A stretch of 64,000 nt of DNA from Pseudomonadota bacterium (GCA_039816045.1 JBCBYB010000009.1:55791-119790); one strand, 5' to 3'. Positions 51,727 through 53,877 are shown, counted from the first letter of the stretch. Notes: a model not told the origin generated them from the letters alone. Translations and numbers: made by a program.

Positions 51727-53439
51727 TCAGTGCCGGGAGCCTCGTCGGGTTATTCCGATTTGGCGGCTTTGGCCTGATTTGCTTGAGCGCGTCACCTCGC
51801 GCGCAAGCGGTGGTGCCACATCGGACGATTTCCTCATTGTAGCCGTGCCGTGTGGCGGGCCGTAGCTGGCCTCGCTCTGTGGATGTGATGCACATCCAAA
51901 GCGGCCGATTGGCGCGGGAACTACGGGCTGCACAGCCTCCCACTCGCCGGCAGCATAGATGTCGCTCAGCGTCAGCTTACTGCGCTGAAGCACATAATCC
52001 TCAGGTTTCGGCAAGCGCTTCGAAAGCGACCAATAGAACGAGCTCATCTCACCAGTCTTAGGCGAGAAGAGATAGCCGTCATCGGTCAGCTCCCACCCGT
52101 TCTGCTCAACGATGGCCAAGAGCGAGTAGTGCTTGCCATCGGGTTTCATCACCCGCGTGCCGAGGCGGATTTCACCTTCCTCGATCACTTCGACCGAACC
52201 ATCGGGGTGTTGCGTGCCGGTGAAGGTTTTGACCATGCGATCACCGAGTGACCCGACGAGCTCATTGGTTGCTGCACGGATTAGGCGCCCGTCCTCTTTC
52301 ACCAGCGCGCCATCAGAGCGTAGAATGTTGATTATGGGAACATGCCGTCCGGCAAAGCGACCATCGCCGCAGAGCGTGACATGGCCAGGCGTGACCATTA
52401 GCCCAAAAACATCAAGGATATAGCGGACGGAATTCTCCATCGTCTGGGTGACGCGACCCGGAACGAGATTGCCGTTGCGCTCATACGACACGACCTCGTC
52501 ACCGACCCGGATGTCTTCGATCGGTCTCTTGGTGCCATCCCACATGGAGATTTCGGTGCCCGCGAGGAAGCATTCTTGCGGGGCTCGCAGACTTTCGTCG
52601 CTGAGCTGCTGCATCAAAGAGAAAGCCCCCTCGAAGTCCGAAAACCCGATTTGCTCCATCTCAGCCAATGCGGCGGCAATATCGGGATTTCCGCTTCTCC
52701 ATGCGTCTCTCAAAGCCACGGCGGTTGCGAGAATTTGCTCGCGATCCGCACCGATCATGAAGGAGAAGTCTACCGAGCGATTATATTCATCGCCGCCCGG
52801 CCATTCCATGAAGCGGGATGCGTCGTTCCCGGAGCCTGGCGACACAAAGTTCTGCGAGAGGTAATCGAGCACTTGCTGATCAATGTCCGCGCTTGCGAAT
52901 TGGCGTAGATCATTAATCCGAGTCTCTGAAGCAGCCGCCTCGCCTAGGAAAATGTGTGATGCCGCTCCAAGCTGCAATCCCATCCGGACCGCCGACAAGC
53001 CTTGGTCCCAGACGTCAACGCCGTTCGAGAGATAGTCCACTGCGAACTGTAAATTCGATCGCATGACTTGCTGCTCATACATGATCAGCGCATCGGCTAC
53101 GGCTGCACGGTTTTGTGGGGAAGCCGTATCCAGATAGTGTTGCGCATCAACAAACCGGCCATCTCTGACGAGGCCAAATTCATAGTCGCCGGTGGGCGTA
53201 GGTGTAACCAAATCTGAGAAGCCCAAGTTCGCGAGATTGCTGCGAAGGTTCTCTTCGCCTAAAATCTCGTTCAGGTCGTGAGCCTTGGCGACGTAACTAT
53301 CGTAAGAATCTACGCCGACGCCAAACTTTTCGGCATCGGTCAAACGACGGCCAGGATAACCTGTGCCATTGGACCATCCCGGCCCTGACCAGTTGCCATA
53401 TTGCAGAATTAGATTCCGTGCGAGTGTCAGCGTATCCAT
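51727..53439 (-). CDS. PLA2-like N-terminal domain + Hint (intein-like) autoprocessing domain protein
   Basis: YGNWSGPG (aa 14-21) and AKAHD (H54-D55); Hint block A CFLAGTEISMWDGTKRPIEDIRVGDEV starting at C290; block B TPGH (H353). Confidence 0.85.
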   Translation of the reverse strand: MDTLTLARNLILQYGNWSGPGWSNGTGYPGRRLTDAEKFGVGVDSYDSYVAKAHDLNEILGEENLRSNLANLGFSDLVTPTPTGDYEFGLVRDGRFVDAQHYLDTASPQNRAAVADALIMYEQQVMRSNLQFAVDYLSNGVDVWDQGLSAVRMGLQLGAASHIFLGEAAASETRINDLRQFASADIDQQVLDYLSQNFVSPGSGNDASRFMEWPGGDEYNRSVDFSFMIGADREQILATAVALRDAWRSGNPDIAAALAEMEQIGFSDFEGAFSLMQQLSDESLRAPQECFLAGTEISMWDGTKRPIEDIRVGDEVVSYERNGNLVPGRVTQTMENSVRYILDVFGLMVTPGHVTLCGDGRFAGRHVPIINILRSDGALVKEDGRLIRAATNELVGSLGDRMVKTFTGTQHPDGSVEVIEEGEIRLGTRVMKPDGKHYSLLAIVEQNGWELTDDGYLFSPKTGEMSSFYWSLSKRLPKPEDYVLQRSKLTLSDIYAAGEWEAVQPVVPAPIGRFGCASHPQSEASYGPPHGTATMRKSSDVAPPLAREVTRSSKSGQSRQIGITRRGSRH

Positions 53440-53463
53440 ATCATCCCTCTCAATAGCATTTTC

Positions 53464-53877
53464 CTACTCGCGCACCTTGGTGAGTTCAATTTGGCCACGG
53501 CAATCGCTCGCTCTCCAGGAGCCTTTTCCGCGATCAGAAGACCCAAATTCAATGTAAAACCATGGGTATTCGAGTATTGCGGTTTTGCCGGTCACAGGAT
53601 TTGTATGCTCAACATTTTGCCGTGCCGTACCGCTGGCACTTCGCTTTTGGACACCGTGGCGGAAATCAAAATAATACTTGTCACTGTACGCCCGAAACAT
53701 CATTCCGCCCGTTGCCGTGTAGGTTTGGAGTGAGTCTTCGCCGCATTGTTCAGATGTGAGCGTCACGGCCCAACGACCCGTATATTGTGTCGGGATGTAT
53801 CTGGCATTCGGCCATCCCCAGCCGCAAGCGGCGAGCGAGACCATGAGCAATGCAGAAACTAATCCTGTGCGGGTCAA
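53464..53877 (-). CDS. Lipoprotein, candidate immunity protein
   Basis: TTG start gives MTRTGLVSALLMVSLAAC (lipobox LAAC); stop is 24 nt before the PLA2-Hint ATG. Confidence 0.75.
   Translation of the reverse strand: MTRTGLVSALLMVSLAACGWGWPNARYIPTQYTGRWAVTLTSEQCGEDSLQTYTATGGMMFRAYSDKYYFDFRHGVQKRSASGTARQNVEHTNPVTGKTAILEYPWFYIEFGSSDRGKGSWRASDCRGQIELTKVRE

Follow-up and report, generated by a model that had tools for sequence, protein, structure and literature searches.

Among the systems described to date, those closest to the locus reported here are built around domains of the Hint superfamily. PT-HINT toxins carry their HINT domain just upstream of a C-terminal toxin and are linked to export by type II, type V or type VII secretion systems or by the TcdB/TcaC route, not by type I secretion (Zhang et al., 2012, PMC3482391). 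A-type BIL domains (Amitai 2003 and Dassa 2004, as summarized in PMC7765530) occupy hypervariable regions of non-conserved secreted proteins and have a conserved His-Asn without a conserved +1 nucleophile. Split inteins such as DnaE have their halves on separate polypeptides, and Hedgehog (Hog) proteins place an N-terminal cargo ahead of a Hint domain that is complete in cis. Here we describe a two-gene locus on the minus strand of a 64,000-nucleotide stretch of DNA from a Pseudomonadota bacterium (GCA_039816045.1, JBCBYB010000009.1:55791-119790; this whole stretch is hereafter called the window), which encodes a lipoprotein followed by a 570-residue polymorphic toxin whose C-terminal portion resembles one half of a split intein. 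From comparative genomics and one monomer model, which together form the basis of the split-Hint mechanism proposed below, we consider this locus to be probably an orphan toxin-immunity cassette of a split intein-like polymorphic toxin system that is linked to RTX proteins and type I secretion.

The toxin gene spans positions 51727..53439 of the minus strand. Its product opens with a toxin domain (residues 1-289; 52573..53439), continues with the N-terminal half of a Hint fold (about residues 290-395; 52255..52572) and an inserted conserved domain (about residues 396-505, including ..LPKPEDYVLQRS..EWE; 51925..52254), and closes with a disordered, proline-rich basic tail that ends in histidine (residues 506-570; 51730..51924), all encoded on that same strand. 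The codon for Cys290 (52570..52572) corresponds to Hint block A and to the first Hint residue, and it marks the junction between the variable and constant parts of the protein, whereas block B is formed by T350-P-G-H353 (52381-52392). Among 70 to 85 aligned module sequences, C290, T350 and H353 never vary, and P351 and G352 are invariant or nearly so. Matches to Hint families in Pfam are below threshold, start at residues 288-290 and cover only the first 30-60 positions of the profiles.

In the AlphaFold2 (AF2) model of this module, residues 290-505 have pLDDT values above 90, including the inserted domain with its many invariant residues, and residues 513-570 are disordered (pLDDT <50). Every structure matched by the model in Foldseek is an intein, a BIL domain or a Hedgehog domain (probability 0.9-1.0), and the best fits are N-inteins, as exemplified by the 101-residue Npu DnaE IntN (4qfq/4lx3), for which TM scores are 0.70-0.74 and root-mean-square deviations (rmsd) are 2.5-3.2 Å. 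Full inteins, BIL domains and Hedgehog domains align over only ~100-117 columns, or else with rmsd values above 10 Å; the Hedgehog domain HhC (1at0) reaches a TM score of just 0.40 at an rmsd of 19 Å. The model thus confirms the predicted Hint fold of residues ~290-395. An initial annotation, made from the sequence of the window alone, had placed blocks A and B at these residues, and the invariant positions together with the modeled fold bear this out; the same annotation was also right that the toxin has neither a signal peptide nor a terminal His-Asn. The inserted domain lies where inteins carry an endonuclease or a linker. A hidden Markov model (HMM) of Hint blocks F and G gave no match in any of 120 module proteins or of the six reading frames of the window. 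The module holds only the N-terminal half of a Hint domain, and blocks F/G with their His-Asn are missing in cis.

This half-domain is the constant part of a large family. A search of 5.8 billion proteins with the module returned more than 250 homologues, nearly all of which match only from residue 290 to about residue 510. Across 119 homologues, the module cysteine lies 40 to 470 residues from the N-terminus, the TPGH motif always follows 60 residues on and LPKPEDY about 186 residues on, and the N-termini fall into 63 unrelated clusters. A constant module joined to swapped N-termini is the signature of a polymorphic toxin family, here with the toxin in the N-terminal position. The payloads recognized by Pfam (TseH-like, SleB-like [Hydrolase_2], Tlde1/YkuD and class-3 lipase [Lipase_3]) are all enzymes with the cell envelope as their target. 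Marine Alphaproteobacteria account for all 70 genome loci found, and most relatives reside in chromosomal housekeeping contexts.

The exchange of N-termini is sharply delimited. Paralogues of the same genome have unrelated N-termini but modules that are 97-100% identical (99% in a Thioclava metagenome-assembled genome [MAG], 100% in an Ahrensia MAG and 97% in MAG P01_B01_bin.64), a degree of identity that implies gene conversion, and the modules within one genome evidently evolve in concert. The closest relative of the module from the window, protein P0002 of locus L087, is 82.7% identical over residues 290-510 and unrelated before residue 290. At the DNA level the similarity (82.6% identity over 639 nucleotides) starts exactly at the Cys290 codon, at position 52572. 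Like PT-HINT toxins, the members of this family are polymorphic, have an adjacent candidate immunity gene and carry Hint at the toxin junction. Unlike those toxins, however, they have the toxin domain at the N-terminus, the immunity gene upstream, a Hint domain that appears to be split, and a link to RTX proteins and type I secretion. As the initial annotation pointed out, the order of toxin and then Hint is the reverse of that known for PT-HINT toxins (PMC3482391).

The other half of the Hint domain is found on a different protein in relatives of the locus. Gene clustering around the 70 genome loci revealed that HlyC-type acyltransferases (11 loci), ABC exporters, HlyD-type fusion proteins and proteins of 2100-2500 residues recur. 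Near the N-terminus of these giant proteins, behind a leader of ~30-100 residues and ahead of the RTX body, is the motif '(V/T)YNFEVE..HTYIAGG.RVHN', which judged by its sequence is an unmistakable intein block F/G; the equivalent segment of the Npu IntC half reads 'VYDIGVERDHNFALKNGFIASN'. The motif occurs in 25 loci, in each case with E <1e-15, and nothing weaker appears up to E = 1. Those F/G-bearing proteins that are fully seen are usually RTX proteins, with lengths of ~900-2500 residues. The motif is carried by a separate downstream gene in 22 of the 25 loci and is in cis in the other three (L054, L050 and L066). When counted from the module genes, it lies downstream in 20 of the 49 evaluable loci (~40%), mostly at a distance of 180-750 bp and either adjacent or with an HlyC gene between, and there are several module genes per partner gene. 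Separate genes for the two halves are also seen in L087, the locus of the closest relative, and the window contains no partner for its own copy. The catalytic residues that are conserved complement each other, with Cys1 and TxxH on the module and the block F histidine and His-Asn on the partner. All 25 partners have the His-Asn, and in 24 of them the +2 residue is serine.

Two loci illustrate this arrangement. Locus L087 consists of an open reading frame (ORF) with a signal peptide, the toxin-module gene for P0002, an HlyC gene and a gene (3282-10691) for a 2469-residue RTX protein, which begins with a leader and 'TYNFTVDKHHTYIAGGFRVHN' followed directly by NS. A precomputed Pfam list assigns to this partner PF26745 (SPM, the FrpC-type RTX self-processing module), but our own hmmscan search (E<=0.01) did not return PF26745. 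By Pfam, the gene order of L025 is ABC exporter, HlyD-type fusion protein, a 245-residue protein, toxin-module protein, HlyC, a 2089-residue RTX protein in which 17 stretches match HemolysinCabind, another HlyC and, last, an acyl carrier protein. The 570-residue protein of the window has no HemolysinCabind match in Pfam, so it is not itself an RTX repeat protein. A short HlyC-family gene directly follows the module gene in L048 (8747-9121), L012, L025, L031, L034, L047, L055, L060 and L087; L048 fits this pattern without an RTX or IntC gene nearby. Behind the RTX gene come another, longer HlyC gene and a gene for an acyl carrier protein.

Contiguous and cis-fused relatives show that the two parts make up a single Hint domain. 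In L054, one ORF encodes a toxin, the cysteine, the module with its insert, blocks F/G with His-Asn and a C-terminal flank, and matches to the Pfam families PT-HINT and Intein_splicing end at the His-Asn. Both the insert and blocks F/G are present in this protein, and therefore the insert does not replace blocks F/G. A more compact form is found in L066, in L050 and in a protein from a Roseibium aggregatum plasmid, each of which has an N-terminal toxin-like domain (SleB-like in L050), a compact Hint domain with the same F/G motif and a C-terminal flank. The plasmid protein (locus L084, NZ_CP045630.1, 41848-55092) is annotated as a 4414-residue 'calcium-binding protein'. Its first 600 residues comprise a domain that resembles HExxH metallopeptidases, a contiguous Hint domain (C…TPGH…TYNLTVADFHTYVAGGYRVHN, followed by DS) and a glycine zipper, after which RTX repeats begin. 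An HlyC gene is located upstream.

The flanks that follow His-Asn in L028, L064, L067 and L084 contain glycine-rich segments of the 'GSAIGSQIANLFG' type that resemble glycine zippers. Such flanks are reminiscent of the contact-dependent bacteriocins that Caulobacter exports by type I secretion (CdzC/D; PMC5380434), an analogy that hints at membrane insertion by the carrier. The tail of the module has its own conserved motif in the family, N(V/I)PLS(M/L)R..P..MSRKQRRAxEAKxRK….H, and 65 of 120 module proteins end in histidine, and others stop just after 'SMR(N/Q)'. Tail type does not separate orphan copies from those adjacent to a partner. In the cis-fused L054 protein, the 'NIPLSL' tail motif sits between the insert and blocks F/G. 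The idea that a basic tail might pair with an acidic leader is not convincing, as the partner leaders have an average net charge of only -1.3.

Considered together, the two halves resemble split inteins in residing on separate polypeptides and in their make-up, with an N-half of ~100 residues that bears Cys1 and TxxH, as in Npu DnaE IntN, and a short C-half that bears F/G and His-Asn. An unrelated gene, here HlyC, often lies between the halves, as is seen for split inteins in 'fractured genes'. Unlike split inteins, the flanks are not halves of one conserved essential protein, and many N-exteins (the toxins) would correspond to one C-extein. Moreover, the +1 nucleophile is not conserved, the C-half follows a ~30-100-residue leader, and splicing is here only a candidate outcome. 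A comparison with A-type BIL domains is equally instructive, as both belong to the Hint superfamily, share Cys1 and TxxH, and combine hypervariable N-terminal flanks with an invariant His-Asn and a variable +1 residue. A-type BIL domains self-cleave, and the contiguous relatives of the module in RTX proteins look like BIL domains. In contrast to A-type BIL domains, the domain described here is divided over two genes, has a conserved insert of ~110 residues and a basic tail, and is flanked by a polymorphic toxin on its N-terminal side and by a giant RTX protein on its C-terminal side. No published description of a split BIL domain was found in the literature searched.

The gene upstream of the toxin gene encodes a candidate periplasmic immunity protein. 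It spans 53464..53901 of the minus strand if read from the TTG at 53901 (145 residues, the start chosen by gene callers) or 53464..53877 from the TTG at 53877 (137 residues, as initially annotated), and the ORF extends over 53464..53973 when counted from its first TTG. With either of the two shorter starts, the protein has a lipoprotein signal peptide and lipobox, LVSALLMVSLAA-C (LAAC; 53824..53877, minus strand), in which the codon of the lipidated cysteine is at 53824-53826, so the call of a lipoprotein holds. The gap to the toxin gene is 24 nucleotides, and a Shine-Dalgarno-like sequence, GAGAGGGA (53444..53451, minus strand), is located 5 nucleotides before the toxin ATG. Family-wide, 46 of 52 module genes are preceded by a small same-strand ORF that abuts or overlaps their start, so that the swappable payloads with cognate upstream genes that were foreseen by the initial annotation are indeed observed. 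Most of these small ORFs begin with a signal peptide or a transmembrane segment, and one upstream protein (the 245-residue protein of L025) has a weak Imm11 match. Among the 52 module genes examined, no upstream small ORF is conserved across loci with different toxins.

The lipoprotein of the window is very rare, as a homology search of 5.8 billion proteins yielded only two close relatives, both on tiny contigs. On three metagenome contigs (L079-81), a lipoprotein gene that is 59% identical precedes an N-domain that is 76% identical, and this N-domain is fused to a different module variant that is just 44% identical to the module of the window. Therefore, toxin-immunity units and modules are shuffled at the Cys junction. 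The gene callers cut the toxin of L079-L081 into pieces of 91, 229 and 237 residues, and frameshifts or assembly errors may account for this. In L078, a lipoprotein gene with 29% identity (E 2e-9), detected through synteny only and not by homology search, overlaps the start of a stand-alone N-domain homologue without Hint. Lipoboxes are also present in the homologues P0138 and P0139 and in the L078 copy. The N-domains of a second branch (P0003, P0004) have a different protein of 361-415 residues encoded ahead of them, and the L003 copy of this protein has a lipobox. The recurrence of the pair in L079-81 and L078 agrees with the earlier proposal of a toxin and lipoprotein-immunity operon, and its retention across such divergence supports a toxin-immunity relationship with a predicted site of action in the periplasm or envelope. 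Protection by the lipoprotein would then amount to neutralization of the toxin domain in the periplasm. An upstream periplasmic lipoprotein has a parallel in the immunity proteins of the type VI secretion Tle/Tli lipase pairs.

A lipase-like activity is also conceivable for the toxin domain itself, as it carries motifs that resemble those of secreted phospholipases A2 (PLA2s). The segment Y14-GNWSGPG-W22 (53374..53400, minus strand), which is nearly invariant in the family, resembles the PLA2 Ca2+-binding loop, and G42-V-D44-x-x-D47...K52-x-H54-D55-L-N-E58 (53266..53316, minus strand) is a candidate for the catalytic His-Asp helix. A profile search of 1.84 billion representative proteins identified ~55 relatives of the N-domain, many of them stand-alone proteins of 250-300 residues. 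In the alignment, Y14, G15, W17, S18, G19, P20, D44, D47, K52, H54 and D55 are invariant or nearly so, and D44, D47, H54 and D55 are invariant in the family alignment designated A5. The loop residues Y14, G15, W17, G19 and G21, followed by D44, D47, H54 and D55, are conserved and in PLA2 order. The more distant relatives match only the first 60-70 positions, where their motifs are more canonical; these members carry 'YGNWCG..VDxLDxCCKTHD', and 'KPHDLAYD' provides the HDxxY motif. One such protein (P0184) reads 'YGNWCGPGW…PAVDNLDQCCKTHDI', which can be compared with 'YGCYCGLG…PVDELDRCCETHDCCY' of pancreatic PLA2.

Profile comparisons converge on PLA2s, although each match is weak. A profile of 19 N-terminal segments gave three PDB matches at E<=10, two of which are secreted PLA2s (E 6.6 and 9.4) whose alignments have the Ca-loop ('YGCYCGxG') and the D-x-x-D…HD helix ('VDELDRCCxTHD') in colinear order. 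Two of the four PDB matches for the Cys-containing subgroup are a group XIII PLA2 (E 0.73) and a snake PLA2 (E 1.3). In Pfam, the distant segments match Phospholip_A2_2 (4 segments, best E 0.053; range 0.05-0.08) and Phospholip_A2_1 (2 segments, best 0.087), which are the sole families matched by more than one segment. With the N-domain of the window as query, however, Pfam and NCBIfam searches gave no family, a profile search of PDB sequences gave only dynein noise, and Foldseek with its AF2 model (all-helical, pLDDT 81, pTM 0.80) gave no PLA2 and nothing at E<=0.001 in PDB and BFVD. The domain lacks cysteines and hence disulfides. What survives of the PLA2-like domain proposed at the outset is thus the set of motifs, with H54-D55 and Y14-G-N-W-S-G-P-G21 correctly positioned, and the weak matches that converge on PLA2s; a significant Pfam or PDB match and a matching fold are lacking. 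We rejected the claim of a PLA2 fold as unproven for a cysteine-free, 289-residue helical domain without a fold match. The domain shares the YGxWxGxG loop, the D-x-x-D spacing and the His-Asp dyad, in the same order, with secreted PLA2s of groups I/II, III and XIII, and differs from them in having no disulfides, 289 residues in helical arrangement, no fold match and ~20 residues inserted between loop and D-x-x-D. A PLA2-like active site set within a larger cysteine-free helical domain is plausible though not established, a local PLA2-like core within the 289 residues is possible, and moderate support exists for a predicted phospholipase activity.

A mechanism that would unite these parts can be proposed. 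The outer-envelope lipoprotein encoded upstream would neutralize the toxin domain in the periplasm. The N-half on the module and the IntC half on an RTX protein would associate and rebuild an active Hint domain, whereupon Cys290 would convert the Glu289-Cys290 bond into a thioester. The toxin domain could then be transferred onto the N-terminus of the RTX carrier, either by trans-splicing or by BIL-type ligation after Asn cyclization, or it could instead be released by cleavage, and delivery would proceed via the RTX/type I secretion route. We infer in this way the physical complementation of the halves, its chemical outcome and the export route of this copy. In favor of ligation, only a covalent product could travel through type I secretion, and the presence of many 'warheads' alongside a single carrier would be explained. 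In the Thioclava MAG, an orphan and the partner-adjacent copy have modules that are 99% identical, which suggests that orphans either use the same partner in trans or recombine into its locus. The most far-reaching version, in which toxin 'warheads' with their immunity genes reside at scattered or mobile loci and are each trans-spliced via the half-Hint handle onto one resident RTX carrier for type I export, seems to us a tentative and somewhat doubtful proposition.

Several observations weigh against the view of the locus as one part of a split-Hint system. About 59% of the family loci are orphans with no partner within ±8 kb, and the 64-kb window itself contains no IntC-bearing, RTX or type I secretion gene that could be found with tblastn, regular expressions or an HMM for the partner. 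AF2 models the module with very high confidence as one unit, which may mean that it is stable and possibly active alone. Among partners, the +1 residue is Thr in 11 of 25 and Ser in 1 of 25, with Q, R, K, E, D or M in the rest; with Thr or Ser in just 12 of 25, the family as a whole cannot rely on canonical splicing chemistry. Because chains pass through type I secretion unfolded, a toxin and carrier held together non-covalently would not be exported as a pair. With regard to ligation in particular, the contiguous forms of the protein need no Hint domain merely for fusion, and A-type BIL domains are reported mainly to cleave (PMC7765530). Finally, the PLA2 similarity of the toxin domain is statistically insignificant in every single test, with all E values between 0.05 and 9.

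The strongest competing explanation is the one offered by the initial annotation, in which the protein would be an autonomous, Hedgehog-like self-cleaving Hint variant with a further C-terminal domain. A thioester at Cys290 would then free the 289-residue toxin with no need for a partner, perhaps as a lipid or other adduct. The invariance of Cys1 and TPGH speaks for this, 'VTPGH' resembles Hedgehog block B, and weak sequence matches in PDB are to Hedgehog. Residues 290-505 appear as one confident unit in AF2, no partner lies within reach at most loci, the window among them, and cleavage of the N-terminal flank is reported for B-type BIL domains even though they lack a canonical C-terminal motif (PMC7765530). 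The likeness to Hog proteins extends to the N-terminal cargo that precedes a Hint domain with Cys1 and block B (V)TP(A/G)H, to the predicted thioester between cargo and Hint, and to the extra region past the Hint core. In Hog proteins, however, the Hint domain is complete in cis and the extra region recruits sterol, whereas here the C-terminal strands are missing and reside, in relatives, on another protein. The structural match is confined to the N-intein half, the fit to HhC is poor, and the insert, which coexists with blocks F/G in L054, is no substitute for them. A perfectly conserved His-Asn on the ~21-35 residues of Hint in the partners is sensible only with an N-half supplied in trans. 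An autonomous domain is thus rather unlikely and probably wrong in one key respect, namely that the protein has only the N-intein half, the other half being in trans on an RTX protein. No evidence of a lipid adduct on the toxin of the window emerged from this computational analysis.

Less likely still is that the locus is a silent orphan cassette at the DNA level, a reserve toxin-immunity unit that would become active after homologous recombination into an RTX-carrier locus, much like orphan CdiA-CT and Rhs cassettes. The homology breakpoint located exactly at the Cys290 codon, the gene conversion implied by near-identical modules within genomes, and the occurrence of this N-domain, together with its lipoprotein, on a second module variant are all in accord with such recombination, as is the low GC content of a cassette that lies beside a truncated resolvase gene on a mobile element. 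Nevertheless, the toxin ORF is intact, starts with an ATG of its own behind a good ribosome-binding site and follows an immunity gene, and orphan copies keep the module and tail intact and conserved. This explanation is also compatible with the split-Hint system and differs from it only in when the cassette is used.

The surroundings of the split-Hint cassette point to a mobile element. The window carries an F-type conjugation gene set (TraL/E/K/B/V/C/N/H/G) in a transfer region at 25852-48000, in which TraG_N (25852-29010), TraH (29015-30412), TraN (33518-36469) and TraC (39484-42111) are located, as well as a gene for a ParA-like ATPase (14790-16160), and therefore belongs to a plasmid or an integrative conjugative element. 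The toxin gene has a GC content of 0.567 and the lipoprotein gene one of 0.527, compared with 0.69 for the neighboring tra region, and GC at third codon positions is 0.63 for the cassette versus 0.85; together with the short intergenic gap, these values agree with the two-gene operon in AT-richer DNA that was originally described. Immediately downstream of the toxin cassette are two convergent RES-toxin/Xre-antitoxin pairs (Pfam RES and Xre_MbcA_ParS_C; 49250-50400, plus strand, and 50594-51480, minus strand). Such pairs are typical addiction modules on mobile elements. On the other side is a resolvase-like ORF (53933-54538, minus strand) whose Pfam match is limited to Resolvase positions 58-144, without the N-terminal region that has the catalytic serine; this remnant probably marks the insertion point of the low-GC cassette. 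Past it, the content differs between the two public contigs that carry the cassette. We conclude that the cassette is most likely low-GC cargo aboard an F-type conjugative element.

Other features of the neighborhood are less informative. A weak terminator-like hairpin (51702..51715, minus strand) found by a hairpin scan begins 12 nucleotides past the toxin stop codon, but promoter and terminator scans of the locus gave site counts that were not above those of shuffled controls, and the hairpin is only suggestive. ORFs of 1066 codons (59900-63100, minus strand) and 484 codons (47230-48684, plus strand) have no Pfam match at E<=1e-5. A DNA search of a plasmid collection returned no relatives of the cassette, and a protein search of the same collection returned only distant contiguous Hint domains in RTX proteins. 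A link to phages or gene-transfer agents was rejected, with just 2 matches in 2.9 million viral contigs.

The proximity to tra genes, a possible link hinted at by the initial annotation, could suggest that the toxin is injected into rivals with its C-terminal module and Arg/Lys-rich, disordered tail serving as a signal for the coupling protein, in the manner of the X-Tfe/X-Tfi effectors of Xanthomonas and Stenotrophomonas, which reportedly share variable N-terminal envelope-targeting toxins, a constant domain at the C-terminus and a lipoprotein immunity gene located upstream (PMC6759196, PMC10933484), but this is very improbable given that no tra or vir genes recur in at least 70 related loci, where HlyC, RTX, ABC exporter and HlyD-type fusion protein genes recur instead, that most relatives have chromosomal settings, that the GC content of the cassette is unlike that of the tra region and speaks for later insertion, and that bacteria-killing type IV systems are of the VirB/D4 type and not the F type. 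The constant domain is, moreover, a half-Hint and not the XVIPCD of X-Tfe proteins, and the family is linked to RTX proteins and type I secretion rather than to VirB/D4. Type VI secretion, considered for the TseH and Tlde1 payloads, was likewise set aside, as no type VI neighbors recur in the related loci.

Neither proteins with an N-terminal toxin and a half-Hint domain nor RTX proteins bearing IntC were found to be described in the literature searched. The components, which include BIL and Hint domains, split inteins, RTX/type I secretion and polymorphic toxins, are known, and it is their combination that appears to be new. On a conservative reading, the findings add a new polymorphic toxin architecture with an N-terminal toxin, a C-terminal constant module and an upstream immunity gene, as well as a new and rare toxin domain that has a PLA2-like active site and a cognate lipoprotein. 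If the split-Hint system is real, it would be the first natural case in which intein-type chemistry links exchangeable toxins to a secretion carrier or conditionally frees them from it, and it may yield new orthogonal split-intein-like ligation reagents. Such a system would offer a route to toxin diversification that is distinct from the DNA recombination of CdiA, Rhs and other polymorphic toxins. It would also tie RTX proteins and type I secretion to interbacterial competition, giving the giant RTX proteins a competitive role, and would explain hundreds of 'Hint domain-containing hypothetical proteins' in marine Alphaproteobacteria such as Stappiaceae, Pseudovibrio, Rhodobacterales, Sneathiella and others. 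If swapping does occur at the protein level, a plasmid like the one examined here could arm the existing delivery machine of its recipient with a new toxin, without any DNA recombination.

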